A stretch of 64,000 nt of DNA from positions 4,166-68,165 of the forward strand of contig JAJFIX010000023.1 in assembly GCA_021774575.1 (NCBI GenBank), given 5' to 3'. This DNA comes from Alphaproteobacteria bacterium. Lineage in GTDB: Bacteria; Pseudomonadota; Alphaproteobacteria; UBA6615. Shown one piece after another: positions 20,083 to 59,160 of this stretch (positions are counted from its first letter, which is position 1; each line of letters opens with the position of its first letter). The notes beneath the pieces were generated by a model that did not search any database, had not been told where the DNA came from, and saw only the letters and a list, made by a program, of their open reading frames with translations. The position numbers were made by a program, and so were the translations under genes.

Positions 20083-20531
20083 GAGGTGGCGCCTATTTGC
20101 AACACCCAAATGAACTATTCCATATAATTCGGTCGAGCTATAGATTTGTTGGGCCCGTGAGTTGGTGCAACTACAAGACCGACTGAACTGTCCTAAGACC
20201 GTTGTGCAGTCTGAACTTTATGAAGGTTTTTCAATTCAATTTACGTCGCTGGAACGGCTCAAAAGTGGCCCAATTTGGGGGTCGGTTATCGAGCCGATTG
20301 CCTGTGGAAAAAACATGGTTTCATCCACAGGGCTGTGTACTGTTCTGAGTTGTGGCGAGACCGTGGCTTGGACATCGGGGGAATCAATGAATATCGAAAC
20401 ACTGCCTTCAGCGGCAGTGTGCTGCTCTTGGCAAGGTATAACCTGTCGGGGTTGCGCAAATGTGGGGGCGTGCTTTGGACGATAACCGTTTTCGATCGCG
20501 GTTATTTGGCCGGCCGTTTTCTTGCCGATTA

Positions 20532-39866: not shown

Positions 39867-41072
39867 TTGATGACCGGAATGGAACGCGCACTTCGATATT
39901 ATCCACCCGGTGACTGGCCCGCCGATCAGGCGTTGGAACATGTCACCCTCGATTTCGATCGACGTCATCGACGCCGGATCCGCCTGGTTTCAGATCGGGA
40001 CAAGCCCTATTTATTAGACCTGGAGAAGGCGGTGGCGATGACCAATGGCGGTGGGTTGGCGCTTGAGGGCGGCGGTTGGTTAGCCGTTCGCTCGGCGGCC
40101 GAACCGTTGCTTGAAATTAGAGCGCGTGACGATGCGCACCGCACCCGCATCGCATGGCATCTTGGTAATCGGCATTTACCGGTGCAAATTTGCGGTGACG
40201 CCTTGCGAATACGCGACGATCATGTGATCGCCGATATGGTGCGCAAACTGGACGGCGACGTTACCGCCTTGGACGCTGCCTTTGATCCCGAGGGCGGCGC
40301 CTATGGGGTCGGTCAGGTGCAAGGTCACAGTCATGGGAATGGGAATGGGAAAGGCCACGACCATTCAGCTGCGGCGGCGCCGACGACTGATGTCCTTTAC
40401 AAGCTTCTGACTTGGGTATCGCCATCCTATCCCATTGGGGCCTACACCTACTCCCATGGGCTCGAATATGCGGTCGAAACCGGCCGCGTGTCTGATTTGA
40501 CCAGTTTGTTTTCCTGGCTCGAGGCGCTTATCGGAAATGGCGGTGCCTGGATCGACGCCGTCATGCTGGCCCGCGCATGGGTTGCTACTAACAGAAGTGA
40601 CGAGCCGAAATTGCTCGAAATTGCCATTTGGGCCGCCGCCTTTCGCGCCACTTCCGAGACGTCACTGGAAGCTATAGCCCAGGGGCGCGCCTTTGCCGAT
40701 GTGACCTGCTCGGTGTGGGATACGCCCGTACTTGGCGCGCTCTGCGAACGCCATGATGGGGCTGTTACCCATCCCGTGGCGATGGGGATCGCCTGCGCAG
40801 AGCATAAGATTGGTCTTGGCGAGGCGTTGAACGCCTATCTTCATGGGTTCCTTGCCAACCTTGTTTCGGCGTCAATCAGGCTGGGAGTTATCGGGCAGAG
40901 TGACGGGCAGATGGCAATTAAAATGGGAGAAAATGTGGTTGCCGAAACAGTGAAGCGAGCCAAAGAAATGTCGGATGGTGAAAATTTTGAAGCTTTGGGG
41001 ACAGGGACGGTAATGGCCGATTGGACATCGATGATGCATGAAAACCAATATTCAAGGCTGTTCCGGTCATGA
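39867..41072 (+). CDS. ureEF: fused urease accessory protein UreE-UreF (single 401 aa ORF)
   Basis: The N-terminal ~170 aa is UreE-like and ends in a His-rich '[15 protein letters not shown]'. The C-terminal ~220 aa is UreF-like ('[25 protein letters not shown]'). No stop codon between them in this sequence. Confidence 0.7.
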
Positions 41073-42596: not shown

Positions 42597-42819
42597 TTTT
42601 AACTCCATTCCGATTACGCTGGATCATTGTTTGCTCTAGGCGATCATTCTTCCGGGTGTTTTTTACCTGGTGTGATTGACCGAAGCTAGCCCGCAGTCAA
42701 ATTTCAATGACACGCGAGGGGCGGTGCAAGTAGCTTGAGCCGTGCGCGGATTTCGTTCAGGTTCAGGTCAGGTTTATGCGCTATGGATTCTGTCTCCCTA
42801 GGGCGAAAAGGAACGTTTG

Positions 42820-43479
42820 ATGCGGGTTCTGTTAATTGAGGATGACGAGATCCTAGGCCAAGCCGTGCGCGATCAAATTGCTGCCGACGGGCACGCAGTC
42901 GATTGGATGCAGCGATTGGATGATGCCGAAGTGAGCGCGCGCAGCGTGGCCTATGACCTAGTGCTGCTTGACCTATTGCTTCCCGACGGACTCGGGCTTG
43001 ATTTCTTGCAGCAGCGCAGAAAGGCCGGTGACGTGACACCGGTCATTATCCTTACGGCGCGCGACCAGATTTCCGACCGCATTGCCGGGTTGAACGCTGG
43101 GGCCGACGATTACCTGGTCAAACCGTTTGACCTTTCTGAATTGACGGCTCGGGTGGCCGCTGTGGCCAGACGCTACGCCGGCAACCCGAACCCACTTGTC
43201 CACCAGGGGGATCTTGAAATTGATCTGGCGGCCCGTGCGGTATATCGGGCGGGTCAGCTCGCCGATCTGACGGCGCGCGAATGGACGCTCTTGGAAGCCT
43301 TGCTTCAGCGACCGGGGACAATTTTATCCAAGAGCCAACTCGAAGATCGCCTGTATGAATTTGGCGGAGAGGTGGAGAGCAACACGATCGAGGTACATGT
43401 TAGCCGCCTCCGTAAGAAACTGGGACACGACCATATCGAGACTGTGCGCGGCATGGGTTACCGAATGGGGCAAACATGA
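42820..43479 (+). CDS. OmpR-family two-component response regulator
   Basis: Receiver domain ('LLIEDD', 'LVLLDLLLPDG') with a winged-helix C-terminus ('VEVHVSRLRKK'). Confidence 0.85.
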   Translation: MRVLLIEDDEILGQAVRDQIAADGHAVDWMQRLDDAEVSARSVAYDLVLLDLLLPDGLGLDFLQQRRKAGDVTPVIILTARDQISDRIAGLNAGADDYLVKPFDLSELTARVAAVARRYAGNPNPLVHQGDLEIDLAARAVYRAGQLADLTAREWTLLEALLQRPGTILSKSQLEDRLYEFGGEVESNTIEVHVSRLRKKLGHDHIETVRGMGYRMGQT

Positions 43480-44807
43480 CAAAGTCTCCAAGCCTGCGGC
43501 GCCAACTCAGCATTGGGATTGCTGCGGGGATCAGTTTCATCTGGATCATTGCGACCGTCGCTGCCGGCCTGATCATTCGCCATGAGCTAGACGAACTTTT
43601 TGACAGCGGTCTTCAGGAAACAGCACAACGCATCTTGCCCCTAGCCGTGGTTGATATCTCGAACCGGGAAGGCCCGATCTCGGCGCAGCGTAGCCCGACG
43701 GTCGGAGTGCATGACGAATATCTGACTTATTTGGTCCGCGATCAATCCGGCAATATCTTGTTACAGTCGCATGACTCAGATCCGGCGACCTATCTTGGGG
43801 AACCGGTTTTGGGATTTCGCGATACGGCGACCCATCGTATCTACGGTGAAGCAGCGGTAAGCGGAACGATTATCGTTGAGGTAGCCGAGCCACTGGCACA
43901 TCGACGTGAAGCGACATTTGAAGCGACCCTTGCGTTTGTTGGTCCCCTTCTGCTCCTTCTGCCGATTAGTCTTCTGGGTGTATGGCGGCTCGTTTGGCAG
44001 AGCATGCGCCCGGTGTTGGCATTCCGAACGGAGGTCGAGGCGCGCGGGGGTGGTGATTTGTCGCCTGTTTCTACGGATAAATTATTTTCCGAAATTCGCC
44101 CGATTGGCCAGGCCGTAAACCAACTGATGGATCGACTGCGCAAGTCGCTCGAATCCGAGCGCAGCTTTGCGGCAAACAGCGCCCACGAGCTGCGAACACC
44201 GATTGCAGCGTCCCTTGCCCAAACCCAGCGATTGATTGCTGAGGTTCCGGCGGGACCACTGCACGACCGAGCTGTCCGAATTGAGGCATCGCTACACCAT
44301 CTCGCCTCCTTGTCGGAAAAGCTCTTGCAGCTGGCAAGGGCCGAAGGCGGTGGCCTGCTGTCGGAATCGCGCCAGAATCTCGTATTGGCCCTCGAGCACC
44401 TTGTTGAAGATTTTCGGCAACAGCCGGAGAATCACAATCGTCTCAGCTTGACTGTTCCCATGTCTGGAGCGGCCATGTCGCGTATGGATTTAGACGCCTT
44501 TGCAATATTGGTCCGCAATATTATCGAGAACGCGCTGAAACATGGTAACCCCGACGAACCCATTGATATCAGTTTGTCCGACGATGGAGTGGTGCGTGTG
44601 GTTAACGCCGGTCCGGTGGTGGACGCTGGTTCGTTGGCGCAGCTAAAAAGCCGGTTCGAACGCGGTGGCACACAGGCCGGCGGGACAGGGCTTGGGCTGG
44701 CAATTGCCGACGCTATCGCGACGGGGGCAGGCGGCAGCCTTCTTCTCCTGTCGCCAGCCACGGACAGGCAGGAAGGATTTGAGGTCGTTCTGCAATTGCC
44801 ACAATGA
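43476..44807 (+). CDS. two-component sensor histidine kinase (HAMP-HisKA-HATPase)
   Basis: Two TM segments, an H-box 'SAHELRTP' and G-boxes 'GTGLGLAIA'. ATGA-coupled to the regulator. Confidence 0.85.
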   Translation: MTKSPSLRRQLSIGIAAGISFIWIIATVAAGLIIRHELDELFDSGLQETAQRILPLAVVDISNREGPISAQRSPTVGVHDEYLTYLVRDQSGNILLQSHDSDPATYLGEPVLGFRDTATHRIYGEAAVSGTIIVEVAEPLAHRREATFEATLAFVGPLLLLLPISLLGVWRLVWQSMRPVLAFRTEVEARGGGDLSPVSTDKLFSEIRPIGQAVNQLMDRLRKSLESERSFAANSAHELRTPIAASLAQTQRLIAEVPAGPLHDRAVRIEASLHHLASLSEKLLQLARAEGGGLLSESRQNLVLALEHLVEDFRQQPENHNRLSLTVPMSGAAMSRMDLDAFAILVRNIIENALKHGNPDEPIDISLSDDGVVRVVNAGPVVDAGSLAQLKSRFERGGTQAGGTGLGLAIADAIATGAGGSLLLLSPATDRQEGFEVVLQLPQ

Positions 44808-45088
44808 GGTAGCGCGCAAGTCGACGATAGTCGGTGTCTATCTGCGGTCAAATGTATTTATTTTGCTGCCTTAATTTGGAACGCCCTCGCCCCTGAGGGG
44901 GCTTCGCGTTCAAATTCATATCATCTCCAAAAACTAGATTGGCGTCGGGAATATCCCTGTGACCTTGCCGATATTCTACGGCTAACGAAGCAGTTTCGCA
45001 CCTGAATGAAAATAAATTTCTCCGTCAGGTTCCCTTCAGGAAGGGGTGCGATATTGCGGCATCATAATTCAAAATAGGAACTCGACAG

Positions 45089-45550
45089 ATGAAACTGAAA
45101 CTCACGATTGCCGCAATGCTGATGGGCCCTTTAGGGGCTGGCGCTGCTTACGCCGCCGATGATGATTGCTCCGTCCCGCTCGCCGATTGGCAGCCGACTG
45201 ACGCGGTGCAGCAGTTGGCCGATACACAAGGTTGGGACGTACAACAGATCCAGGTTGATTCCGGATGTTACGAAATTAGCGGATTGGACAGGCTAGGCCG
45301 AGCGATCGAGGTAACGTTGAACCCGGCGTCACTCGCGATCGTGGAGATTGGTCATGACGGAGATGACGGCCGTGGAAATGATGACCGTGACGACGATGGT
45401 CGTGACGACGATGGTCGTGACGATGATTTCGATCGCGATGATGATGACGACAACGACGACAATGACAATGATAATGACGACGACAATGACAATGACGACG
45501 ACAATGACAATGACAATGACAATGACGACGACGACGACGACGACGATTAA
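45089..45550 (+). CDS. secreted PepSY-domain protein with long poly-Asp/Asn low-complexity tail
   Basis: Signal peptide. PepSY-like core ('GWDVQQIQVDSGCYEISGLDRLGRAIEVTLNPASLAIVEI'). About 65 aa of D/N/R/G tail. Confidence 0.7.
   Translation: MKLKLTIAAMLMGPLGAGAAYAADDDCSVPLADWQPTDAVQQLADTQGWDVQQIQVDSGCYEISGLDRLGRAIEVTLNPASLAIVEIGHDGDDGRGNDDRDDDGRDDDGRDDDFDRDDDDDNDDNDNDNDDDNDNDDDNDNDNDNDDDDDDDD
45357..45547 (+). repeat. coding trinucleotide microsatellite (GAC/GAT/AAT)n encoding the D/N-rich tail
   Basis: 'gacgacaatgacaatgataatgacgacgacaatgacaatgac...gacgacgacgacgacgat' read directly. Imperfect (GAC GAC AAT)/(GAC AAT) units. Confidence 0.8.
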
Positions 45551-45803
45551 TGCCGTCGCGGTGGTCTGCGATTCGGCACAAAATAGGCATTATCGCATCA
45601 CCGTGTAGCGGTCTTTTCATCGAATGGTTTTGGTGCATTTCCGTTGCCTCGCTCACTCCGGAGCGAGGCAACACCGGACCTTAACGCCACCGGATTTGCA
45701 ACCTGAACAGACGAGCAAAGCAATTTTCAAATTCCTTTCGGCGTCGCACCGATCTTTAACGTCGAAATGCATCGACGAAACCGTTTTGACTGGAGACCAA
45801 GCC

Positions 45804-46274
45804 ATGAAATCGCCTTTGGCAGCGTTGACCATAGCCACCACACTTGCCTTGCCAAGCCTAGCCATGGCTGGCCCAGTGACCCTCAGCACTGAAATGAATA
45901 GTTACGGTGGTGATGGCGCTTATCTCGTACTTTATGTGACCGATGCGGAGGGTGCTTACATCGGCACGCTCTGGATGTCGGGTGGCAAGTCGAAATATTA
46001 CAGCCATCTCAGTGATTGGACACGTGCATCAGGTGGTAACTTACAGGAAATCAATGGCATTACCGGCGCGAGCGTTGGCGCTGGCGCGACATTGAACGTA
46101 ACGCTGGAACTTGCCGACGCCCTGTTCGAGGCGGGGTACGAGCTGCACATAGATAGCTCGGTTGAGGACATGCGAGACGTTCCGTCAGAGATCGTCGTGC
46201 CCTTAACCGTCGAAGGCGCCGGCCAAGCTGTTACCGGCAGCCGATACATCAAATCCTTCACCTATGACCGGTAG
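45804..46274 (+). CDS. periplasmic DUF2271-like protein with candidate ApbE flavinylation motif
   Basis: ATG 45804 with a signal peptide 'MKSPLAALTIATTLALPSLAMA'. 'EINGITGASVGAGATL' resembles the D-G-[LI]-[ST]-G-A-[TS] FMN-attachment motif of NqrC/RnfG. The six-frame ORF start at 45624 is likely spurious. Confidence 0.55.
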   Translation: MKSPLAALTIATTLALPSLAMAGPVTLSTEMNSYGGDGAYLVLYVTDAEGAYIGTLWMSGGKSKYYSHLSDWTRASGGNLQEINGITGASVGAGATLNVTLELADALFEAGYELHIDSSVEDMRDVPSEIVVPLTVEGAGQAVTGSRYIKSFTYDR

Positions 46275-46299
46275 GAATCTCTAACGAAGGACGGGTATC

Positions 46300-48510
46300 A
46301 TGCTCCGCCGACTTCACAATGTACCGGGTCTGTTTGCCGCCCTCTTTATCAGTGTTTTAGCTCTAAGCGGAGTTGTTCTTGCGATCTATCCGGCAGTGGA
46401 CAGGGCCGAGGCAGTGTCCGTTTCGACGAGCCAGATCAGCGCCCTCGATCTGGCCGTTCGGGTTGTTCAAAACCATCCCCAAGTTGAGCAAATCAGGCAC
46501 ACTGCGTCGGGCAAAGTCATTGTCTTTTATTTCGAGAACGGTCGCTCGGTCTCACTTATCGTTGACCCGGAAAATGGTCAATCCGTAACAGATTACGTGC
46601 CATCGGGGATCGAGCGATGGGTGACCAATTTACACCGCTCCCTCTTTCTGGGCGATGGAGGACGGATAGCGGTGGGAGCGGGAGCGCTGGCACTCTTGTT
46701 GCTGACAATATCGGGATTACAGATGACTGCGCGGCGCATGGGGGGCTGGCACAGGATTTTTCACAGGGCTCGTGGTACGGGGATGCAGCGATTGCATGTT
46801 GACCTGGGAAGGTCGGTGGTGTTCGGCCTTATGTTTTCTTCGGTTACCGCCCTTTATTTGGTGCTCGCGACATTCGAAGTGATCCCAGACGGTATGTCAC
46901 AAGGCCCGGTTTTCCCGAGCGAGGTAAATGGCGGCCCGACAATGCGGGTAGATCAGATCGGAGCCCTACATAGTGTCGGCTTGGCCGAACTGCGTGAGCT
47001 GACGTTTCCCTATCCAGGTGACCTTACCGATGTGTTCAGCATCAAAACGGCCAAGGGGGAGGGCTTTATTGACCAGGCCACGGGGCAGTTTTTGGTGTGG
47101 CAGGATCATGGTCTCGCACTTCGAATTTATGAATTTATTTATATGTTGCATACTGGACAGGGACTGTGGTGGTGGGGCCTAATCCTTGGGGCGACGGTTT
47201 TATTCATTCCAGTAATGGGGCTTACCGGGTTTTTCGTTTGGTGGCGGCGTCGCCATTCTTACCAGCGTCCGAAGCAAAACATTGCCGTGTGCGCGGCCGA
47301 CACAATCATCCTTATCGGCAGCGAAAGTGGAAGCAGTTGGGCCTTCGCTGGTACTCTACACAATGCTCTGACGGCAGCCGGGCATAAAGTGCATTGTGGC
47401 TCATTGAGCAGCTTTAAGTCGGACTATGCGTCGGCCGAACGCATGTTTATTTTGGCCGCGACCCATGGCGATGGCACCGTCCCAGAATCGGCCAAGGGAT
47501 TTCTTTCCCGTGTAAAATTGCTTGCTACACCGCCTCCATTTTCGGTGACCATACTTGGCTTTGGCGATCGTCAGTTCCCTAAATTTTGCCGGTATGCGAA
47601 AGATGTGAGCGAGACCCTGGCTAAAATGGGTTGGAAGACCTTGTTGCCTTTTGCCACCATCGATCGCCAGTCGGCGCAAGAATTCGCGCGCTGGGGGCGG
47701 AACCTGTCGCAGGTCATGGGCGAAAATTTTGCACTGGTGCATAAGCCTATACGCCCCAAATGCACGACCTTGACCCTTCATTCACGCAGTGATTATGGGG
47801 CTGAAACACAAGCGCCCACGGCCATCCTGCGGTTCTTATTGCCAGAGCGCGGACCGGCAGCGCGGCTCATTGGCCGTGCCCTGCCACGTTTTTCCGCCGG
47901 CGATTTGGTCAGTATCTTGCCGCCCAACAGCGATGTGCCGCGGGACTATTCTCTGGCCTCTTCGAGGAATGAAGGGATGCTGGAAATATGCGTGCGCAAG
48001 CATCCTGACGGGTTGTGCTCCACCCATCTGCATGATTTGCAGCCGGGTGATACGACCCAGGCTTTTATCAAACGCAATCTCGGATTTCGGCCAGCTCCGG
48101 GTCGGAAATCGGTGATCTTAATCGGCGCGGGCACGGGTGTGGGTCCGCTGGCGGGCTTTATCCGCGATAACACGTCGCTTCGCCCGATGCATCTATATTT
48201 TGGCGTGCGCGATCGGACTTCGGATTTTCTCTACGGCGACGACTTTGACAAATGGCTAGCCGACAAACGACTGACCAGTCTCAACACAGCCTCCTCGCGC
48301 GCTCCCGACCATAGCTATGTGCAGGACCGCTTGCTGCAAGATGCGGATCATTTGCGCGTCCTGATCGCGAAGGGGGCCCAGATCATGGTTTGCGGCGGGC
48401 GAGATATGGCCGCAGGCGTGTTGGAGGCGCTGAATGACGTTCTGGCTCCGATAGGTATGGAGCCGGCAACACTCAAAATTCAGGGAAGGTATCTTGAAGA
48501 TGTTTACTAA
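46300..48510 (+). CDS. PepSY-associated-TM protein fused to flavodoxin and FAD/NAD(P)-binding reductase (CysJ / sulfite-reductase-flavoprotein-like) domains
   Basis: N-terminal PepSY-TM helices ('LFAALFISVLALSGVVLAIYP'). Flavodoxin 'TIILIGSESGSSWAFAG' and an FNR-like C-terminus ('ILIGAGTGVGPLAGF'). Confidence 0.7.
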   Translation: MLRRLHNVPGLFAALFISVLALSGVVLAIYPAVDRAEAVSVSTSQISALDLAVRVVQNHPQVEQIRHTASGKVIVFYFENGRSVSLIVDPENGQSVTDYVPSGIERWVTNLHRSLFLGDGGRIAVGAGALALLLLTISGLQMTARRMGGWHRIFHRARGTGMQRLHVDLGRSVVFGLMFSSVTALYLVLATFEVIPDGMSQGPVFPSEVNGGPTMRVDQIGALHSVGLAELRELTFPYPGDLTDVFSIKTAKGEGFIDQATGQFLVWQDHGLALRIYEFIYMLHTGQGLWWWGLILGATVLFIPVMGLTGFFVWWRRRHSYQRPKQNIAVCAADTIILIGSESGSSWAFAGTLHNALTAAGHKVHCGSLSSFKSDYASAERMFILAATHGDGTVPESAKGFLSRVKLLATPPPFSVTILGFGDRQFPKFCRYAKDVSETLAKMGWKTLLPFATIDRQSAQEFARWGRNLSQVMGENFALVHKPIRPKCTTLTLHSRSDYGAETQAPTAILRFLLPERGPAARLIGRALPRFSAGDLVSILPPNSDVPRDYSLASSRNEGMLEICVRKHPDGLCSTHLHDLQPGDTTQAFIKRNLGFRPAPGRKSVILIGAGTGVGPLAGFIRDNTSLRPMHLYFGVRDRTSDFLYGDDFDKWLADKRLTSLNTASSRAPDHSYVQDRLLQDADHLRVLIAKGAQIMVCGGRDMAAGVLEALNDVLAPIGMEPATLKIQGRYLEDVY

Positions 48511-48511
48511 C

Positions 48512-49516
48512 ATGAAACGCCACGCATTGAACGGGGAGACGATGGGAACCCGTTGGTTCGTTCTGGTTTATGCCCCAGCGACGACGGATATTGAGGCTCT
48601 TGAGATCGCCCTCGCCGCCGCGGTGGGTCGGGTGGATAATCAAATGTCTACGTGGAAGCTCGATAGCGACCTGATGCGCCTAAACGCGACGCCTCCGGGC
48701 CAATGGATCTCGCTGCCGCCGGAATTGACCTTTGTGTTGGCCAAAGGATTGGAAATTGGACGAGCCTCGGGTGGCGCCTTCGATATTGGACTAGGTGATC
48801 TCGTCAATGCGTGGGGTTTTGGTCCCGCTAGGAATGCACCCGACCCGGCGGCAATTCAGTCCTGCCTTGGTCGGGTACGATCACCGACCCACGAACTTCT
48901 GGAACTCGATAGGGCATCGTGCCGAGCGCGTATGAGTGCGCCGGTGCAGATCGATTTGTCGGGCATTGCCAAAGGTTTCGGCGTGGATGAGATGGTACGG
49001 GTTTTAGAGAGCTTTTCCATTGAAAACGCATTGGTCGGTCTTGACGGCGAACTCAAAGCCTTAGGTGCAAAACCAGGCGGCACGCCTTGGGCGGTGGCGG
49101 TTGAAAAACCTGACTATGACCGTCGGAGTCCGATGGGGGTGGTCGCGCTGCAAAACTCAGCCATCGCAACCTCGGGTGACTATCGCCATTGGGTCGATGT
49201 CGGCGCGACACGTTTGTCCCACACAATGGTGCTGTCGCGCGGCGGTCCGGTAAATAACGCAATAGCCTCGGTGACGGTATTAACCGCGGACTGTGTTGAC
49301 GCCGATGCCTGGGCAACAGCGTTGCTTGTGCTGGGCGAGTCCGAGGGCGCCAAACTTGCCGAAAAAAACAAATTGGAGGCGCTGATCGTCTCTCGAACCA
49401 GCACCGGTCTGCATAAAGTATGTGTCGGCCCGGTATGGCAAGAATCACAGCCAAAGTTAGCTATGCTGGGTACCGTCGTGAGTTCAATGTTGAAGCTCGG
49501 ACGCGCCGAAATTTGA
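48512..49516 (+). CDS. apbE: ApbE-family FAD:protein FMN transferase
   Basis: ApbE-family conservation ('GDLVNAWGFGPA', 'GIAKGFGVDE', 'AIATSGDY'). No obvious signal peptide from either candidate start (48494 or 48512). Confidence 0.7.
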   Translation: MKRHALNGETMGTRWFVLVYAPATTDIEALEIALAAAVGRVDNQMSTWKLDSDLMRLNATPPGQWISLPPELTFVLAKGLEIGRASGGAFDIGLGDLVNAWGFGPARNAPDPAAIQSCLGRVRSPTHELLELDRASCRARMSAPVQIDLSGIAKGFGVDEMVRVLESFSIENALVGLDGELKALGAKPGGTPWAVAVEKPDYDRRSPMGVVALQNSAIATSGDYRHWVDVGATRLSHTMVLSRGGPVNNAIASVTVLTADCVDADAWATALLVLGESEGAKLAEKNKLEALIVSRTSTGLHKVCVGPVWQESQPKLAMLGTVVSSMLKLGRAEI

Positions 49517-49641: not shown

Positions 49642-51018
49642 GTGTTCGTGAAGGAATTTTGGACCATACGAGGTTGGGGCTTCGTCGTCGGAGCCTGTGT
49701 TTTTATTTTTGCCGCCCACATGTTTTACGGTGCGAATACGAACGCTTTGTCGATGATATTTGCCGCCGCCGCTTATATCTTGTGCGGTCTCGCATTTGCG
49801 CTGACATTTCGGGTGGAAAGCAACGAATTTTTGGTGCGCCATCGCGTCTTGATGTTGCTGTTTCTATTCATTCTCGTTGCTGGTTTTTTGCAGCTTACGC
49901 CATTTGGAATCGGTGGTCCCCATCCGCTCTGGCTTAACCTTGATGGGCCTTCGGCGGTGACCCTTGACCGGGATGCAACTCAACGCGCGTTGCGCCATTT
50001 CGGCGCTGTGGGAGCGGTATTTCTATTCGGCGCGGCACTGGCTGCCGATTCTCGCCGTGCCCGTCTCTTCTTCCAGGTGCTGATGATAGCAATTGCCGCC
50101 TATTCGATCTGGGCGTTCGCGGCGTTTATGCTGGACACTGGGGCGTTATATGGTGTCGAGCGACCGTACCATCGTGGTCGGCTCGCTGCTAGTTTTCTAT
50201 CGGCCAATAGCGCGGCGACATTGTTTGGGACTTTCGGGGTGCTGGCAATGGCGGAAATTCTTCAAGCGCTTCGATATCGGGACGGGCGCGCCGCAACGCG
50301 CGCCGCAATAATCGAGATCCGCTTGCGTCGCGCGGCTTTGCCCGTAATCGCCCTGGCCTTTGCGATGACGTGCCTAGCATTGACCGCTTCGCGCGCGGGT
50401 ATTGCCGTTTCAGGCGCTGCATTGCTCATCCTCATCGGCTGGGAATTGCTTGGCAATAATCATCGTCGCTTGTCGTGGCGTGTTCCAGCGGCCGTTGCCG
50501 CTATCTCCGCCGGCGCTCTGCTTACTGTCACGATGCTCTCCGGCGAACTTGCGGTATCACGGTTTGGCGAAATCGAGACCACTTTGTCCGGGCGCACCCA
50601 ACTCTTTGAAGCTCATTGGGGGGCATTTAAGCAGGCACCGTGGTCCGGCCAGGGGCTGGGTACGTTTCACGTTATCAATCAATTAATCCAGACTTCAAAT
50701 AACTGGCAAAATCTAAATTTTAGCGGCGCAACCCACAACGTTTTCATCCAAGCGCTGGAGGAAGGCGGCGTTCTTATTGCACTACCGCTATTTGCCTTGG
50801 TCGGCCTCATACTGATCCAAATTTTTTACGGGATCGGGCGCCGTCGGCGCATGGCGGGCCGACTGCGCGCTATATTGATCTTCGGTTTTGTGGTGATTGG
50901 CCATGGGACCGTTGATTACGCACTTGAGGTGCCGTCGATTGCTTTGTATTGGGCTTTGCTGCTGGGAGTAGGGGCTGGTTTGGCCGTGGCACGATCAAAG
51001 TCTAGGTCGCCGCGCTAG
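49642..51018 (+). CDS. O-antigen ligase / Wzy-like polysaccharide polymerase-family membrane protein
   Basis: Roughly 12 TM segments and an O-antigen-ligase loop region ('LTASRAGIAVSGAALLILIGW'). GTG start. Confidence 0.6.
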   Translation: MFVKEFWTIRGWGFVVGACVFIFAAHMFYGANTNALSMIFAAAAYILCGLAFALTFRVESNEFLVRHRVLMLLFLFILVAGFLQLTPFGIGGPHPLWLNLDGPSAVTLDRDATQRALRHFGAVGAVFLFGAALAADSRRARLFFQVLMIAIAAYSIWAFAAFMLDTGALYGVERPYHRGRLAASFLSANSAATLFGTFGVLAMAEILQALRYRDGRAATRAAIIEIRLRRAALPVIALAFAMTCLALTASRAGIAVSGAALLILIGWELLGNNHRRLSWRVPAAVAAISAGALLTVTMLSGELAVSRFGEIETTLSGRTQLFEAHWGAFKQAPWSGQGLGTFHVINQLIQTSNNWQNLNFSGATHNVFIQALEEGGVLIALPLFALVGLILIQIFYGIGRRRRMAGRLRAILIFGFVVIGHGTVDYALEVPSIALYWALLLGVGAGLAVARSKSRSPR

Positions 51019-51693
51019 TTACCGGCGAGGGACAAAATTTGTTCCCAAAACTTGTTCGATGGCCTCAATCGCGCCGTCCTCGGCTCGCCGGTTTTCAAGG
51101 CGTGCTAGCAGCTCCGTCAGCCAATTGCGACCCCATGCCGTTGTGCCAAAATTACGCAGCGACCGACGTGCAGCTAATTGTAGGTTGTCGTCAAGGTCTT
51201 GCCACAAGCTTAAGGTAAATTCGATTCGCCATTGTTGAAAGGACAGGTTGCCGTAGGGGATGGTATCAAATGAGTGCCGTAATGCATCTTGGCCCATGGA
51301 GCCCAGTCGCCCGGCTTGGATCGTATTGACATAGGCGAGGCGAGCCCAGGCGTCACCTTGTGCAGGGTTGCGAGCTAGACCAGCATAGCTCTCTGTGCGT
51401 ATACGATCAAAATCCAGTGGACGTTCGGTGAGTGCCAGACGGGCGGCCTGATGATGTAATCTTCCGGTTTCGCGTCGGTCGACTAGTAATTCTCGAGCCT
51501 CGGTGAGCGCGGTGGCTCTGGCTATATCTGACGGGGCCTCTGTGGCCCGGGAAAGCGCTGCGTCAACCTTATCGGCCCGAAGATCCCACCGGCCATAGTT
51601 CGCGGTAGAAATTGCGGCGAGAAAACATAGCATGGGTAATACCCAATGCAGCAGGCCAATTAGTGGCCCATTAAATTTCAGTTGCCGCCTCAT
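51019..51693 (-). CDS. hypothetical membrane-anchored protein (EPS locus)
   Basis: ORF with an N-terminal TM segment. Translationally coupled to the upstream Wzc-like gene (ATGA overlap). No recognised domain. Confidence 0.4.
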   Translation of the reverse strand: MRRQLKFNGPLIGLLHWVLPMLCFLAAISTANYGRWDLRADKVDAALSRATEAPSDIARATALTEARELLVDRRETGRLHHQAARLALTERPLDFDRIRTESYAGLARNPAQGDAWARLAYVNTIQAGRLGSMGQDALRHSFDTIPYGNLSFQQWRIEFTLSLWQDLDDNLQLAARRSLRNFGTTAWGRNWLTELLARLENRRAEDGAIEAIEQVLGTNFVPRR

Positions 51694-53993
51694 CCTTCGG
51701 CATAATAGTTTTTATAACTATTGTAGAAATATCCGGTATCGCCATTTCCGTATCTTCCCTGTGCGTCCATATCGACAAGGCTCAAGGCAACGCCGGCAAT
51801 CGGAGCGTGGGCGGCGGTTAAGATGTCGACCGCCGATTTGACTGCTTTGCGGTGAGTCTTATTCCATCGCGCCAACATGATTACGGCGTCAGCGGTGGCG
51901 GCGAGAGTACGGGTTTCTGTGACCGCCAACAACGGCGCCGTATCGATGACAATAAAATCGTAGCGCGTTCGCAATTGCGCCTGCAGCGATTGCATTTGGT
52001 CGGATCCAAAGACATCCCGCGGCGTCTGATGCGCTGACGCAACCGGAAGAATATCAAGGCCGGTTTTTGGGTCGGTGATCAGGGCATTGTCCAATGGAAT
52101 TTCGCCGGCAAGGACTTCCAGCAGTCCAAACTTGCGTTGCTCACCTATATTTTGGGTGAGGATATGTCGACGTAAGTCGCAGTCGAGCAAGATGGTCTTT
52201 GCCCCGAGCAACTGAGATATCTGGGCCAAACAGTGTGCCGCAGCGGTCTTGCCCTCGTTCGGCAGAGCCGAGGTTACGATAACTGTTTTTGTTTCCCGGT
52301 CTAGATTGGAATAGGTGACTGAGGCGCGCAGCGCCCGGAATGCCTCTGCAAAACCCGAGAGTGGGACTTCAGCAATATAGTCGGCCGGTTGGCGTCCACT
52401 GGCACGCTCCTTCGGCAATTTGGGGATAGAGGTTAACAACGGCATGCCAAGTTCGCGTTCGACGTCTTCTGCTCCACGTAACCCTGTTTCCAGCATTTCG
52501 GCGATGAAAACGGCGCTCGTGCCCGCCATGCCAGCAAGCATGAGAGCCAGCAAACCGGCGAGACTCAAGCTCGGGAAACTCGGATTTATCGGAATTGATG
52601 CCCGAGAAATGATGCGGGCATCGGCTTGTTGGAGGCTCGCAGCCTCGTTGGTTTGCTTGAAACGGGTTAGGAAGGAATCATACAATGCGCGGTCGGTCTC
52701 TGCCTCGCGCTGCAGTTCACGCAACCTTACCATCGCCGTGTTGTTGCGAATTAACTCGCCGCGCTGGTTTTCAACGCTTGACTCAAGAGAGGATAATTGT
52801 TGACGGGCGACACTAACTTCACTTTCCAGCCCGGAGACGATCCGCCTGATTTCACGATTGAGCGCCGTTCCCAAGTCGGCAATTTCGCGCTGAACCCGTT
52901 GTATTTCCGGGTGTCGATCGCCATAACGGCTCGACAAATCTGCTTTTTCACGCAGAACTTCCGATTGCTGATTGCGCAAATCTCGAACGACGTCTGATGA
53001 CAGGACTTCAATGACCGCTTCGCCATTGCCGCCACCGCTGAGCTGGCGGCGCGCGGCGGCTAACCGTGCTTCGCGCTCGGTAAGGTCAGCCCGCAATATG
53101 ATCAATTGCCCGTTTAAATCGATGATTTGTTGTTGGGTTAGTGTGGTTCCATTGGCATCAAGCAGGCCTTCTTCGGCGCGATAGAGTTCAACGGCGCGTT
53201 CGCCAGCTTGAACGCGCTCAGCTAGGTTGCCGAGCCGGTCGCTAAGCCAATTATTGGCGAGTTCAGTCGCCTCGAATTGGGCCTCCAACTGGTCGACGAG
53301 ATAGAGATCCGCCAGCCCGTTGGCCAGCAGGGCAGCCTGTTCTGAACGTTCGCTTTTAACCGAGACCAGGATGACATGAGTGAGGCCTGATCGCCTGACC
53401 TCCACCGCATTGCGTAGCGTATTGATCGTTGATTCGCGCTCGGTCCGCAGCATATCTTCTGGTGTTTGGAGCTGTTGCGCTTCTGATGGCACCAGGGCGC
53501 GCAGCAATCCGAAAACGGCTGAGCCGGCGTTGCGAATCCAGGACAGGGGACCATTGCTCTCATCGCTAACTTGGCTATTCCATTCGCCATCTGCCATCAA
53601 ATCAAGGTCCTCAACCAACCGTGCGGCCAGGGCGTGGGACCCAATAATTTGAACTTCTGTATCGACCACCGCCGAGTCCGGTGGCAAGCCGGAAAGCACC
53701 GATTCGATATCGACAACCTGCTGCTGTCGCGGGTCAACGATGAGTTCGACGGTGCCCGTATATATCGGCGTCAACTGTAGAATGATCAATATGGCGAGTG
53801 AAAAGACTGCACCTGAAACGATCGCGGCCAGAGTTAAACGGCGACGCGCGATTGCTATGAGCTGGTGCAAATCGATGAAATTTGGAACAGCTGACGGCAT
53901 CGACGAGTAACTATTGGCCGGTTCGGTTGTGCCCGATACACCGGCGGCTTCTCGATTGACTGGCTGTTGGCTCATCGGGCGCCTATCTGTCAT
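51690..53993 (-). CDS. polysaccharide co-polymerase / tyrosine autokinase (Wzc / ExoP / GumC family)
   Basis: Wzz-like periplasmic coiled-coil region. C-terminal P-loop kinase 'SALPNEGKTAAAH' and a Tyr-rich tail 'GYFYNSYKNYYAEG'. Confidence 0.8.
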   Translation of the reverse strand: MTDRRPMSQQPVNREAAGVSGTTEPANSYSSMPSAVPNFIDLHQLIAIARRRLTLAAIVSGAVFSLAILIILQLTPIYTGTVELIVDPRQQQVVDIESVLSGLPPDSAVVDTEVQIIGSHALAARLVEDLDLMADGEWNSQVSDESNGPLSWIRNAGSAVFGLLRALVPSEAQQLQTPEDMLRTERESTINTLRNAVEVRRSGLTHVILVSVKSERSEQAALLANGLADLYLVDQLEAQFEATELANNWLSDRLGNLAERVQAGERAVELYRAEEGLLDANGTTLTQQQIIDLNGQLIILRADLTEREARLAAARRQLSGGGNGEAVIEVLSSDVVRDLRNQQSEVLREKADLSSRYGDRHPEIQRVQREIADLGTALNREIRRIVSGLESEVSVARQQLSSLESSVENQRGELIRNNTAMVRLRELQREAETDRALYDSFLTRFKQTNEAASLQQADARIISRASIPINPSFPSLSLAGLLALMLAGMAGTSAVFIAEMLETGLRGAEDVERELGMPLLTSIPKLPKERASGRQPADYIAEVPLSGFAEAFRALRASVTYSNLDRETKTVIVTSALPNEGKTAAAHCLAQISQLLGAKTILLDCDLRRHILTQNIGEQRKFGLLEVLAGEIPLDNALITDPKTGLDILPVASAHQTPRDVFGSDQMQSLQAQLRTRYDFIVIDTAPLLAVTETRTLAATADAVIMLARWNKTHRKAVKSAVDILTAAHAPIAGVALSLVDMDAQGRYGNGDTGYFYNSYKNYYAEG

Positions 53994-54047
53994 TCGACCG
54001 ACGCATGGCCGTAAAATTAGTGGGGGAGCTAATCAAATTAGTGGAAA

Positions 54048-55616
54048 TTATAGTTTTAAAATCACCGAAAGGAGCAGGCTGTTGACCTGATGATCGGCGC
54101 CGGATAGGGCTCCGGTGGAGTTGCGTTTGGAAAAATTATACGAGGCGCCGATTTCCGTATTGCGGTTTATTAGATACTTCACACCTGTGTTCAAATTGTA
54201 ATTTATATCGTCACGATCGACGGCATCGAATTCCTCGAGAGAATAGCCAATGCCGCCGCTTATAATGAGGTTGCGTAGTAGCTCATGATCGGCATTCAGG
54301 TTCGCGTTTGTAACAAAAATACCGCCCGAACCTGGAACGCCGGAATCGGAAATTTCGCGGGAGATATTAAACGCGACGGTCGTCAATCCGGTGGGAAACC
54401 ACTCGACACCGCCACGTGCCGTGAATCCGTTCATATTGCCCAGAGACGCGCCTTCGAAGCGCTGGCTGGTATAGCCAACGGACAACTCGCCCCGTACCAA
54501 ATTTGAAATATCGAAGGTCGATCCGACGAGGATTTCATAACCCCATGAATCACGATCAAGGGGAACCGTCGGTGGTTGCAAATCGTAAGACCGCTCGTTC
54601 CAACCCAAATCGACGAAAACGGATGTATCGGGACTGACCGCATATTCGTTGCGCAGTCCTGCGGAAAGGACATAACGATCTCGGTCGTCCTGGTCGACCG
54701 CCACACCGGTGCTTGTCACCCCATCGTCATAATTATAGGTCATGAATTCAAAACGCCCGGCAAAACGTAAGCGATTGAGTTCCTGGGATGCTGCGGCGTA
54801 GGCGGTAAGTGTGTCAAATTCGGTCGGTTCGATGGTGCCGCCAGCGGAACTCGATGACGATCGCGCTTCATGGGTGAGGTCATAGCGGATACCCGCGCCC
54901 ACTGCTGTGGTGCTTGATACGTCTACCTCTCCGTCGGCAAAAAACCCATAGTCCAAATGGCTTTCATCATCGAAATCAAAGAAATGAGCATAGTCGGTGT
55001 AGGCCCCAGCTTTGAGCGAATGGCGAGACCACATTGACGCAATATCGATTTTCGGGCTGATCGTCAGGATGACGTCCCCCTCTTCGCCAAAATCGGTGGC
55101 GAAGATATTGTCATTGAATTCAAGGTCGGTGGTCAGAGACGGGTCCAGCATGAAAGAGGAAATGCGAAGACCCTTTTGGTCGAAGGCGGGGCGAGTCCGT
55201 TCGGCAACACTAACGTTGCGCGACGGGTCGCTACCGTTTGATTCAGCCCCGCGCCTTGGCCCTGCACTCTGTGCGACAATATAATTTCTCGGCCTCGATG
55301 TTGGCACAGCAACGCCGCTGCCGAGAACATGGGTATCTGCGTCGGCGGATACGGTATTTGCACTATCTGCTGTGGCGGCTTCTGCTTCGATGGCAGTGTC
55401 AGCATCTGAAACGGGCACTGTACGGGGCTGCTCAGGGGATTCGATTGACGCTACAGTAGCGCCGTCCACTTCATGCATCGCCTTATATGCCGGGTGATCG
55501 TACCAGGTTCCGCGAAAAATTTCCGCAGAGGCGGAGGCCGACAGGCCAGATATTCCAACGGCAGCCACACAAAACCCGGTCGCTAAACCAAATCCAATCA
55601 AACATTTGTCACGCAT
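54048..55616 (-). CDS. putative outer-membrane beta-barrel protein associated with polysaccharide export
   Basis: Signal peptide and abundant alternating aromatic/hydrophilic strands with frequent Y/F/G/N/D typical of OM barrels. Family not determinable. Confidence 0.45.
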   Translation of the reverse strand: MRDKCLIGFGLATGFCVAAVGISGLSASASAEIFRGTWYDHPAYKAMHEVDGATVASIESPEQPRTVPVSDADTAIEAEAATADSANTVSADADTHVLGSGVAVPTSRPRNYIVAQSAGPRRGAESNGSDPSRNVSVAERTRPAFDQKGLRISSFMLDPSLTTDLEFNDNIFATDFGEEGDVILTISPKIDIASMWSRHSLKAGAYTDYAHFFDFDDESHLDYGFFADGEVDVSSTTAVGAGIRYDLTHEARSSSSSAGGTIEPTEFDTLTAYAAASQELNRLRFAGRFEFMTYNYDDGVTSTGVAVDQDDRDRYVLSAGLRNEYAVSPDTSVFVDLGWNERSYDLQPPTVPLDRDSWGYEILVGSTFDISNLVRGELSVGYTSQRFEGASLGNMNGFTARGGVEWFPTGLTTVAFNISREISDSGVPGSGGIFVTNANLNADHELLRNLIISGGIGYSLEEFDAVDRDDINYNLNTGVKYLINRNTEIGASYNFSKRNSTGALSGADHQVNSLLLSVILKL

Positions 55617-57678: not shown

Positions 57679-59160
57679 CTAATACACATTTTCATTTTTC
57701 AACAAAGCCAGGCCGGTAAGCCAAAAAACAATCTTCAGGTCCAACCAGGCCGACCATCTGTCAATGTAATCTAGGTCGAATTTAATTCGGTTTTCCATCT
57801 TCGTTGGGTCGCCGGTTTCGCCGCGCCAGCCATTGACTTGGGCCCATCCAGTTATGCCGGGTTTAACCTTGTGACGGTTGGCGTACCGTTCGATGATTTT
57901 GCCGTATTTGCTGTTGTGAATCAGGGCGTGGGGGCGGGGGCCGACCAAGGACATTTCTCCGGTAAACACGTTCAGGAACTGGGGTAATTCGTCCAGGCTT
58001 GTCCTGCGTAGGAACCGACCGACACGGGTTATCCTTGTATCGTTTTTCGTTGCCTGTTTTAGGCGAGAGGAGGCACTGTCTTCAAGCACACTCATTGAGC
58101 GAAACTTTAGGACGTTGATGACTTGGTGATTTAGTCCATGCCGCTGTTGGCGGAAAATTACCGGCCCAGGACTACTCAGTTTGACGGCTAGGGCAATGAA
58201 ACCAAGAAGCGGAGCTAAAAGTATGAGCGCGGCGCCGGCGATAGAAATATCCATGACGCGCTTCACGCATAGATTCCAGCCGACGAGCGCCGATTTGCGG
58301 ATCTCGATGACATTGGTGCTGCCTAGGCGGCGAATATTAGCTTGCCGTAAATGTCGACCGACCAAGTCGGTGTAAAGGCAGACTTGGGTGGCCAGGGCGC
58401 CGAGTTCATCAAGGGCGCTGACGATCCTCTCTTGGGCAATCTCGGGTACCATAACCACAATGAAATCGACCGGATTCGAACGGCAATACTCGATTAGACC
58501 AGCAAGACCGACCTTCAGTTGGCTGGTCTCGTCCTGGTCGTTGGCGCCATCGAATATGCCTACAATTTCGTATCCGGTATAGCCCAAAGTATCGGCAAAA
58601 TCCCGGCAGTCCTGTCGGTCGCCCAGGATTGCAACTCGTTGCCGGAAATAGCCGCGTCGAACAAGCGCCGCCAGCGTTGCCGCCGCCAGAGTTCGGATAC
58701 CGATCACGCCAATCAGGCTGAAACCAGCCCAAACGATCATCCAGCCGCGCGAGTAATCTTGGCCAATTTTAAGCAAATAGCCGAGTGCGGTCAGAGAGAA
58801 GAACATCGTGGTAATGGCAACGAATATGGCGCTTGCACGCACCGGCATGCGGTGATGAAACGAATCGGTATCGTAAAGGTGACGCGTCCTAAACAGAATG
58901 CTAGCAAAAATCATTCCGACAATGCCGATGGCAAAATATTCACCGAGGCCATTCGCCGTTGCCAAATAGAGATCGAGATAAGCATACTTAGCCAAAATTG
59001 CGGCGGTTAGAATGGTTGCGGCGTCGCCGATCGCCAGGAGATCGGCAATCATCTTCGGCGTGACCGTTTTGACCAGGCCCCGGCGTCGCTTCTGCGCTGC
59101 CGACAGAGGCTGCGGCCTCAATTCGGGGAATTCTAGGGAAGTTGAATTTGTCAAAGACAT
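57679..59160 (-). CDS. undecaprenyl-phosphate hexose-1-phosphate transferase (WbaP/ExoY/CpsE 'bacterial sugar transferase' family)
   Basis: Five N-terminal TM segments then a conserved C-domain 'PGPVIFRQQRHG..KFRSM..DELPQFLNV..MSLVGPRP..PGITGWAQVNG'. Confidence 0.85.
   Translation of the reverse strand: MSLTNSTSLEFPELRPQPLSAAQKRRRGLVKTVTPKMIADLLAIGDAATILTAAILAKYAYLDLYLATANGLGEYFAIGIVGMIFASILFRTRHLYDTDSFHHRMPVRASAIFVAITTMFFSLTALGYLLKIGQDYSRGWMIVWAGFSLIGVIGIRTLAAATLAALVRRGYFRQRVAILGDRQDCRDFADTLGYTGYEIVGIFDGANDQDETSQLKVGLAGLIEYCRSNPVDFIVVMVPEIAQERIVSALDELGALATQVCLYTDLVGRHLRQANIRRLGSTNVIEIRKSALVGWNLCVKRVMDISIAGAALILLAPLLGFIALAVKLSSPGPVIFRQQRHGLNHQVINVLKFRSMSVLEDSASSRLKQATKNDTRITRVGRFLRRTSLDELPQFLNVFTGEMSLVGPRPHALIHNSKYGKIIERYANRHKVKPGITGWAQVNGWRGETGDPTKMENRIKFDLDYIDRWSAWLDLKIVFWLTGLALLKNENVY

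Follow-up and report, generated by a model that had tools for sequence, protein, structure and literature searches.

A two-component system and a predicted electron-transfer module of the PepSY_TM/DUF2271/ApbE class form a widely conserved gene set in Proteobacteria

We analysed a set of six genes in a 64,000-nucleotide stretch of DNA (the window) from an Alphaproteobacteria bacterium of the GTDB lineage UBA6615 (assembly GCA_021774575.1, contig JAJFIX010000023.1, positions 4,166 to 68,165 of the forward strand). The genes encode a response regulator, a histidine kinase, a secreted PepSY_2 protein, a DUF2271 protein, a fusion of a PepSY_TM domain with flavodoxin and FNR-like domains (the fusion), and an ApbE-family flavin transferase; all lie on the plus strand and together span 42817-49516 (open reading frame listing and Pfam; Table 1). 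Searches with Pfam and NCBIfam profiles covered the six-gene set and selected other open reading frames of the window. An earlier reading made from the letters alone (the sequence-only reading) had listed the same six genes and proposed that they form a unit that carries electrons to the periplasm; all six are present as it described them.

Table 1. Genes and sequence elements of the six-gene locus, in window coordinates
Feature	Position	Strand	Basis or remark
Response regulator, OmpR/PhoB family, PmrA/QseB-like	42817/42820-43479	+	Pfam Response_reg and Trans_reg_C, each E about 1e-23
Histidine kinase	43476-44807	+	Pfam 2CSK_N, HAMP, HisKA, HATPase_c
Secreted PepSY_2 protein	45089-45550	+	Pfam PepSY_2, E 6e-23
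DUF2271 protein, 156 aa	45804-46274	+	Pfam DUF2271, E 1.5e-32
PepSY_TM-flavodoxin-FNR fusion, 736 aa	46300-48510	+	Pfam
ApbE-family FAD:protein FMN transferase	48494/48500-49516	+	Pfam ApbE, E 4e-75, model positions 1-266 of 266 covered
Putative regulator box 1, TCAGGTTCAGGTCAGG	42757-42772	+	About 45-60 nt before the response regulator start codon
Putative regulator box 2, TCAGGTTCCCTTCAGG	45025-45040	+	Begins 64 nt before the PepSY_2 start codon
Perfect 12-bp inverted repeat, GTTGCCTCGCTC/GAGCGAGGCAAC, 6-nt loop	45643-45672	+	No T-run after it

The response regulator stop and the kinase start overlap by 4 nt, the DUF2271 and fusion genes are 25 nt apart, and the last 11 nt of the fusion gene (stop 48508-48510) are shared with the ApbE gene, which begins at ATG 48500. 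Gaps of 281 nt and 253 nt precede the PepSY_2 and DUF2271 genes, respectively. Hence, two or three transcription units are more likely than one, and of the "compact, co-directional" order of the sequence-only reading, the shared strand stands and the compactness holds only for part of the set. The open reading frame tool began the DUF2271 gene at 45624; its true start is almost certainly ATG 45804, which has a GGAGA ribosome-binding site, yields the signal peptide MKSPLAALTIATTLALPSLAMA and is also the start in the public gene call on the identical contig. The G+C content of the six-gene locus is the same as that of the remainder of the window.

We scanned one genome per GTDB species and found 80 other loci anchored on the fusion protein (48-64% identity), in Alphaproteobacteria (Bradyrhizobium, Mesorhizobium, Reyranella and many Rhodobacterales), Betaproteobacteria (Burkholderiales) and Gammaproteobacteria (Halomonas, Neptuniibacter, Pseudomonas). 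Gene presence was scored by tblastn with the six window proteins, the response regulator, kinase and PepSY_2 genes being counted within 6 kb, and some absences are contig ends. DUF2271 lies directly upstream of the fusion gene at 80/80 loci and ApbE directly downstream at 69/80. The kinase was found at 65/80 loci, PepSY_2 beside the two-component system at 69/80, and the orthologous response regulator at 67/80 with 56-76% identity, i.e. more conserved than the reductase. The genes flanking these loci vary by taxon. This association is far beyond chance, and the six genes are a widely conserved set; the proposal that they form a unit is decisively borne out by these counts.

The usual layout is divergent, with PepSY_2, DUF2271, the fusion and ApbE on the strand opposite to the kinase and response regulator; compared with the other 80 loci, the window stands alone in its fully co-directional order. 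Among 8000 candidates scored, 1495 fusion-protein homologues matched at E <= 1e-10, and the named ones among the 120 matches listed are mostly called "PepSY domain-containing protein" or "sulfite reductase flavoprotein alpha-component". The closest named relatives of the window proteins are alphaproteobacterial (58-66% identity).

The fusion consists of PepSY_TM (residues 3-317, E 2.4e-32, model positions 1-295 of 295), Flavodoxin_1 (337-459), FAD_binding_6 (541-586) and NAD_binding_1 (607-707). Four histidines, H6, H112, H166 and H284, are invariant in 46 fusion homologues. The AlphaFold2 model (predicted local distance difference test 84.5) has transmembrane (TM) helices at residues 8-35, 118-147, 161-191 and 290-320 and two alpha/beta inserts, and it places H6 and H166 at the cytoplasmic helix ends and H112 and H284 at the periplasmic ends. 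The sole PDB sequence match of the N-terminal part is a weak one (E 0.08) to FoxB, in which four histidines, two per membrane face, hold two b-haems (PDB 7ABW); H6 and H284 align with the FoxB motifs LLHRY and PIHGG. On the strength of these residues and the model, the PepSY_TM domain is predicted to bind two b-haems through the four histidines.

The C-terminal half of the fusion carries a canonical FMN phosphate loop, RxYS, GxGxxP, CGG and a C-terminal EDVY, of which RxYS, GxGxxP and EDVY are invariant in the homologues. Its best matches by Foldseek and hidden Markov models are CysJ, CPR, NOS reductase and BM3; the Foldseek search with the full-length model returned diflavin reductases only and did not probe the FoxB-like fold of the N-terminal part. 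Since basic residues follow TM4, we place the C-terminal half in the cytoplasm. About 80 residues lie between the flavodoxin and FAD-binding domains by their boundaries, which suggests that the connecting domain is short or absent.

The DUF2271 protein has a predicted flavinylation motif, ITGAS, at residues 86-90 with Ser90 as the predicted site (TGAS at nucleotides 46062-46073). The motif [S/T]GA[S/T], as TGAS or SGAS, is kept in 82/84 DUF2271 orthologues, and among the six window proteins it occurs in DUF2271 only. By inspection, the N-terminus, MKSPLAALTIATTLALPSLAMA followed by GPV, is a Sec-type signal peptide. Some databases call DUF2271 orthologues "Tat pathway signal protein"; the signal peptides of the orthologues are all of the Sec type, we found a twin arginine in 0/82 full-length ones, and we rejected Tat export of a pre-flavinylated protein. 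A PDB sequence search with DUF2271 gave no significant match, and a homologue search towards DUF4198-type clusters returned only its own clade, at 68% identity or more. The ApbE of Amantichitinum (A. ursilacus) attaches flavin to the [S/T]GA[S/T] motif of the cognate DUF2271 protein, as found when both were produced in the cytoplasm of E. coli with their signal peptides removed; the native A. ursilacus ApbE has a signal peptide (PMC8238504).

The longest open reading frame of the window ApbE leaves 16 residues before the conserved strand GETMGT, so that there is no signal peptide or lipobox, and an N-terminal extension is absent in 69/69 orthologous clusters. The protein contains GxTMGT, DLSGIAKG, ATSGDYRH and DADAWATAL, which we take to be the ApbE catalytic and Mg motifs. 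Its conserved N-terminus, (K)MSTD, is the +1 reading of the ...EDVY-stop of the fusion gene, and this position of the start codon inside the end of the fusion gene suggests that the two genes are translationally coupled. We rejected a programmed frameshift joining ApbE to the reductase; the open frame before the ApbE start is unconserved, with lengths of 6 to 71 codons among orthologues.

We searched 1.8 billion cluster representatives (50% identity) for ApbE relatives. None of the retrieved representatives at least 44% identical to the window ApbE has an N-terminal extension, and nearly all those at about 40-41% identity have a lipobox or signal peptide. By sequence, the signal-peptide-less ApbEs are a discrete subfamily. 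One metagenomic contig (Logan SRR31327702, L085 349-3106) has a DUF2271 gene followed by a 750-aa PepSY_TM-flavodoxin-ApbE fusion without the FNR domain; it is a singleton in a 15-billion-protein collection, and it places ApbE on the cytoplasmic side. The cluster ApbE is missing at 11 loci, from Halomonas, Oceanospirillales and related Gammaproteobacteria. Gammaproteobacteria of this type usually carry a periplasmic ApbE for Na+-NQR. Hence, the 11 loci weakly suggest that the cluster ApbE and a periplasmic ApbE serve the same substrate and are interchangeable. The flavodoxin loop, GSEG[GN][ST]TW, is a canonical phosphate loop and is identical in clusters with and without ApbE.

The PepSY_2 protein has an N-terminal signal peptide and two conserved cysteines. 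Its orthologues share the signal peptide and a core, DDDC..WQPREAV..GWTVRRIKTDDGCYE, followed by an acidic tract rich in Asp, Glu and His and of very variable length; many end in PPxNGLFxxGxxPKVxVQ, a motif that the window copy lacks. In the window, the 65 C-terminal residues are almost pure Asp and Asn (e.g. DDNDNDNDDDNDNDDDNDNDNDNDDDDDDDD; about 45350-45547), encoded by tandem repeats with periods of 6, 12, 15 and 18 nt (e.g. GACAAT x11.5), and this tract is probably prone to expansion and contraction. A PDB sequence search with the PepSY_2 protein gave no significant match. The acidic tail may bind metal.

For such a protein a precedent was reported in 2025: DbfQ, a small periplasmic PepSY protein encoded with DbfRS, binds the sensor domain of the kinase, and neighbourhoods of PepSY proteins and two-component systems, including BqsRS of P. 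aeruginosa, are enriched more than 60-fold (PMC12714742). Other PepSY proteins bind lanthanides (LanP) or U/Fe (UipA, cited in PMC12714742). A small secreted PepSY-only protein within four genes of a kinase and response regulator marks modules of the DbfQRS/BqsRS type, and at the window locus it lies directly downstream of the kinase gene. By this analogy, PepSY_2 is probably a periplasmic partner of the kinase, possibly a cation-binding co-sensor, and not a redox component. The sequence-only reading was right that a secreted PepSY protein is present; the place in the electron chain that it gave the protein is less likely than that of a kinase partner.

Among the NCBIfam models, the response regulator comes closest to PmrA (216 bits) and QseB (187 bits) and the kinase to QseC and PmrB; none of these matches reaches its equivalog cut-off. 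Just past TM1, at the start of its 2CSK_N-type periplasmic domain, the kinase has R-H-E-L-D-E (residues 35-40); among 66 orthologues, E37 is kept in 53 and E40 in 52. QseC-type sensors have a similar sequence. The likeness of this R-H-E-x-x-E sequence to the HExxE motif of PmrB and the RExxE motif of BqsS (PMC4358008) is only a hint. A sensor like PmrAB or BqsRS would suit periplasmic metal as a signal no less well than iron starvation.

The direct repeat TCAGG-N6-TCAGG occurs exactly in only two copies in the window (0.07 expected), and these are the two boxes before the response regulator and PepSY_2 genes. Across loci, the regions upstream of PepSY_2 share CTGACnnnnACCTGAAG, then about 17-20 nt, then CTTCAGGTnnnnGTCAGG, that is, two inverted copies of the direct repeat, which has an 11-bp period. 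Counting the forward box with at most one mismatch (background rate 0.02 per region), we found it upstream of PepSY_2 at 60/71 orthologous loci, starting at a median of 64 nt (interquartile range 62-66) before the start codon, upstream of the response regulator gene at 50/68 (median 61 nt) and upstream of DUF2271 at 30/82 (64 nt). The same box precedes a gene for a transmembrane reductase with Ferric_reduct and FAD domains (NAD(P)H-type) at at least two Oceanospirillales loci (L060, L080). Hence, the direct repeat conserved before these genes would tie the operon to the two-component system and not to Fur or Irr; as judged from sequence, control of the operon by its own two-component system through the putative TCAGG-N6-TCAGG box is most likely.

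At many alphaproteobacterial loci, the spacer between PepSY_2 and DUF2271 includes an intrinsic terminator and then a second double box. Where this spacer is short, DUF2271 is evidently co-transcribed with PepSY_2. In the window, the inverted repeat of Table 1 occupies the position that the terminator and second regulator box have in other genomes.

The explanation that best accounts for these observations, and in which we have moderate confidence, is a sensory module joined to an electron-exporting effector, i.e. a sensor-controlled periplasmic metal reductase. In the mechanism that we infer, the sensory module would be the PmrAB/QseBC/BqsRS-like two-component system together with the secreted PepSY_2 protein, whose tail looks cation-binding and which, by analogy with DbfQ and DbfS, would modulate the kinase in the periplasm. 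The phosphorylated regulator would bind TCAGG-N6-TCAGG over the -35 region and activate both its own operon and the PepSY_2/DUF2271 operon. NAD(P)H would reduce FAD in the FNR-like domain and next FMN in the flavodoxin domain, and the electrons would cross the membrane via two b-haems on the four invariant PepSY_TM histidines. They would then reach a covalent FMN on Ser90 of DUF2271, which ApbE would install, and/or a substrate in the periplasmic PepSY cavity. The terminal acceptor would be a periplasmic metal, with Fe(III) as our best guess, and the role would be in metal homeostasis. Of the chain that the sequence-only reading had drawn, from NAD(P)H through the FNR, flavodoxin and PepSY_TM domains to DUF2271, the architecture is supported (domains, four histidines, TGAS, co-conservation); a simple flavinylation step in the periplasm does not fit, the link to iron is indirect, and the secreted PepSY protein is probably not part of the chain.

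Several observations weigh against this sensor-controlled metal reductase. No Fur box or Irr iron control element (ICE) box was found near the operon with up to three mismatches, and no iron or siderophore transporter, TonB receptor or DUF4198 gene lies beside it among the open reading frames checked with Pfam and NCBIfam. Directly after ApbE, 10/81 orthologous loci have a VIT1 gene, and a P-type ATPase with a PCP motif is present at 8/81. VIT1 and P1B-type ATPases export metal out of the cytoplasm. Such neighbours are as compatible with metal excess as with metal acquisition, if not more so. The window spacer between PepSY_2 and DUF2271 has neither a box nor a clear terminator, just a weak terminator-like site; without a box before DUF2271, the reductase genes would come under the regulator only through transcription that continues from the PepSY_2 promoter. 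Finally, an ApbE without a signal peptide and a Sec-exported DUF2271 do not fit the usual periplasmic flavinylation step.

Other electron-transfer genes recur at the orthologous loci. A cytochrome b561 gene (PF01292) stands between PepSY_2 and DUF2271 at 14/81 loci (L017, L022, L031, L033-L035, L037, L039, L040, L044, L046, L049, L061, L078) and may provide a second membrane electron route. A Ferric_reduct/FAD protein is encoded at 9/81 loci; this NOX/FRE-like gene lies in the interval between the response regulator and PepSY_2 genes at Oceanospirillales-type loci without a cluster ApbE (L060, L062, L070, L077, L080, L081 and others). The window locus has none of the VIT1, P-type ATPase, cytochrome b561 and Ferric_reduct/FAD genes.

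An assimilatory role is unlikely, in our estimate. The locus would then be a classical ferric or ferrisiderophore reductase like FoxB, FsrB, HiuB or CCNA_03155-03159, induced by iron starvation and supplying Fe(II) to uptake. The PepSY_TM relatives of known function are indeed ferrisiderophore reductases, much as the sequence-only reading had stated for PepSY-TM homologues (siderophore/Fe(III) reductases), and Alteromonas DUF2271 genes are induced under iron limitation. In Caulobacter, the Fur-repressed cluster CC_3059-3063 (CCNA_03155-03159), which encodes a transporter, DUF2271, DUF4198, ApbE and a "sulfite reductase flavoprotein", is up 12- to 50-fold in iron limitation or upon fur deletion (PMC3751524), and its mutants lose fitness in EDTA (bioRxiv 10.1101/2024.10.16.618771). 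The lack of Fur and Irr boxes in or near the operon argues against such a role, and the conserved putative control element is the direct repeat of a two-component system. Among the open reading frames checked near the window operon there is likewise no TonB-dependent receptor, DUF4198 gene or uptake transporter, and none of these recurs beside the 81 orthologous loci; the neighbours that do recur, VIT1 and the P-type ATPase, belong to exporter families. FoxB-type reductases are recognised by association with a TonB-dependent siderophore receptor or by regulation through iron starvation, and at the window locus we found no such receptor and no Fur or Irr box. Hence, the iron-reductase reading draws its support from distant homologues and from the differently organised Caulobacter cluster, and none from local iron genes or iron-responsive boxes.

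The misfit between ApbE and its presumed substrate, which is apparently undiscussed in the flavinylation literature surveyed, has three possible solutions: flavinylation before Sec export, another periplasmic ApbE, or a cytoplasmic target. The first belongs to a fuller version of the scheme that we consider doubtful, in which the locus would be a distinct, horizontally spread regulon for NAD(P)H-driven electron export, switched on by the two-component system and its acidic-tailed PepSY co-sensor upon a cation or metal signal in the envelope, and DUF2271 would be flavinylated in the cytoplasm, before Sec translocation, by the signal-peptide-less ApbE. We know of no description of covalent flavinylation preceding translocation.

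We regard it as improbable that the signal-peptide-less ApbE acts in the cytoplasm on a target other than DUF2271 while a separate periplasmic ApbE flavinylates DUF2271; the cluster enzyme might then load FMN on, or fix it covalently to, the flavodoxin domain of the fusion, or be an FAD pyrophosphatase. An export signal on this ApbE is impossible, its subfamily is discrete, its gene shares 11 nt with the end of the fusion gene, the metagenomic contig joins an ApbE to PepSY_TM and flavodoxin, and the beta1-alpha1 loop of flavodoxin-fold proteins can serve as a flavinylation site for ApbE (PMC11334425). However, the phosphate loop of the flavodoxin domain lacks [S/T]GA[S/T] and is the same with or without a cluster ApbE, on which ground we rejected this domain as the substrate except as a rival of low probability. 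The sole flavinylation motif of the six proteins is in DUF2271, the joined gene of the contig is a singleton, and the 11 loci without a cluster ApbE suggest that the two ApbE types are interchangeable, if their hosts have the Na+-NQR enzyme. In addition, ApbE-DUF2271 fusions occur elsewhere (PMC8238504). Hence, for ApbE as the maturase of DUF2271, which the sequence-only reading had implied, the gene, the motif and the co-conservation stand, and a flavinylation step in the periplasm does not fit an enzyme without a signal peptide in all 69 orthologous clusters.

A stress-sensed periplasmic reductase for some other acceptor, such as Cu(II) (as for CrpH), another metal or metalloid, or an oxidised envelope component, has in our view a small probability. 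As the probable cupric reductase CrpH shows, iron is not the only substrate of PepSY_TM proteins, and the conservation of their periplasmic cavities is poor; the PepSY proteins LanP and UipA bind lanthanides and U/Fe, and tails of poly-Asp and His are generic binders of hard cations. Yet the loci have no recurrent genes for copper handling, for haem-copper oxidase assembly or for any other specific marker, and the recurrent VIT1 points to Fe or Mn.

That the six genes are neighbours by chance, as two internal spacers of 250-280 nt and the unrelated urease, GST and exopolysaccharide genes around them might suggest, is refuted for practical purposes by the co-conservation counts, with the set kept across three proteobacterial classes in differing flanks, and by the conserved box common to the genes.

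The surroundings of the locus in the window are unrelated to it. Upstream lie a urea ABC transporter, a urease operon and a divergent GST gene; one urease accessory gene (39867-41072) is an apparent UreE-UreF fusion of 401 aa, by an NCBIfam UreE match to residues 2-169 and by the precomputed Pfam domains UreE_N, UreE_C and UreF of the identical contig. Downstream are exopolysaccharide or O-antigen genes: the cluster at 49642-55616 includes a Wzy_C ligase/polymerase-like gene, an unknown 224-aa open reading frame, a Wzz/GNVR/AAA_31 tyrosine-kinase-type co-polymerase and a BBP2_2 beta-barrel porin, and a Bac_transf sugar transferase follows beyond it at 57679-59160. A 3443-aa open reading frame at 20460-30791, in the most G+C-rich region of the window (about 0.60), contains DUF11 (nine stretches), DUF7507, CARDB and SdrD_B-like repeats and is probably a surface adhesin-like protein.

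Electron-export systems determine how bacteria acquire and detoxify metals and how they cope with oxidants in the envelope, and the PepSY_TM/DUF2271/ApbE class is abundant, in thousands of genomes. The window locus and its 80 orthologues offer a compact, testable regulatory handle on this class, a dedicated two-component system whose putative box is easy to mutate, and the fused NAD(P)H reductase is a self-contained electron donor. The pairing of a cytoplasmic-looking ApbE with a secreted substrate is a clear anomaly, and resolving these points would clarify both the maturation of covalent flavoproteins and the substrate of the module.

The effector half of the locus belongs to a published class. 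Méheust et al. (2021, eLife) defined "PepSY-like systems" by a PF03929 or PF16357 protein at most five genes from an ApbE, DUF2271, DUF3570 or FMN_bind gene, with a signal peptide or lipidation site on at least one target gene; they proposed iron-reduction roles and counted 3220 PepSY-like clusters, 2833 with DUF2271 and 1500 with DUF4198, with 1077 PepSY-like genes carrying a NAD-binding domain (PMC8238504). The window has a PepSY_TM (PF03929) protein with DUF2271 and ApbE as immediate neighbours, and its DUF2271 has a signal peptide and [S/T]GA[S/T]. Hence, the locus is one more member of the class, and the interpretation of the sequence-only reading is essentially the hypothesis already described in 2021. 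PepSY_TM, DUF2271 and ApbE, the NAD-binding sub-class and the path from NAD(P)H to a periplasmic flavin are shared with those systems; the conserved set here differs in its acidic-tailed PepSY_2 protein. In contrast to the A. ursilacus enzyme, the window ApbE has no signal peptide. In contrast to the Caulobacter cluster, the window locus has no DUF4198, TonB receptor or transporter and has a dedicated two-component system with a conserved box, which would take the place of Fur.

With FoxB, FsrB, FpvG, HiuB, Burkholderia FhuB and CrpH, the fusion shares a four-helix domain, two periplasmic PepSY domains, four histidines and a predicted transmembrane transfer of electrons to a periplasmic metal complex. 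Unlike these reductases, it carries its own flavodoxin/FNR donor, is partnered with a predicted flavinylated periplasmic protein and has no adjacent TonB-dependent receptor or siderophore genes; its similarity to FoxB is marginal (E 0.08). The diflavin reductases (CysJ, P450 reductase, NOS reductase and BM3) have the same order of a flavodoxin-like FMN domain and an FNR-like FAD/NADPH domain, with RxYS, GxGxxP, CGG and a C-terminal aromatic residue, whereas the fusion is anchored N-terminally by a predicted haem-binding membrane domain and matches Pfam FAD_binding_6 and not the FAD_binding_1 typical of CysJ and CPR.

The sensory half resembles DbfQRS of Vibrio cholerae and BqsPQRS of Pseudomonas aeruginosa in its secreted single-domain PepSY protein beside an OmpR-family regulator and a kinase, in a putative autoregulation by a direct-repeat box and in an (R/H)ExxE-like motif that opens the periplasmic domain of the kinase. 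The BqsR box, TTAAG-N6-TTAAG, overlaps the -35 hexamer (PMC4358008); the box described here has the same 5-bp half-sites, 11-bp period and putative position over the -35 region, with TCAGG in the place of TTAAG. The locus differs from these modules in the PepSY_2 family and acidic low-complexity tail of its PepSY protein and in its predicted conserved regulon, a periplasmic reductase operon, which is unreported for DbfRS or BqsRS. Compared with the published systems, the additions are small but concrete: a conserved, putative control by a two-component system, a probable PepSY_2 partner of the kinase and an ApbE without a signal peptide.

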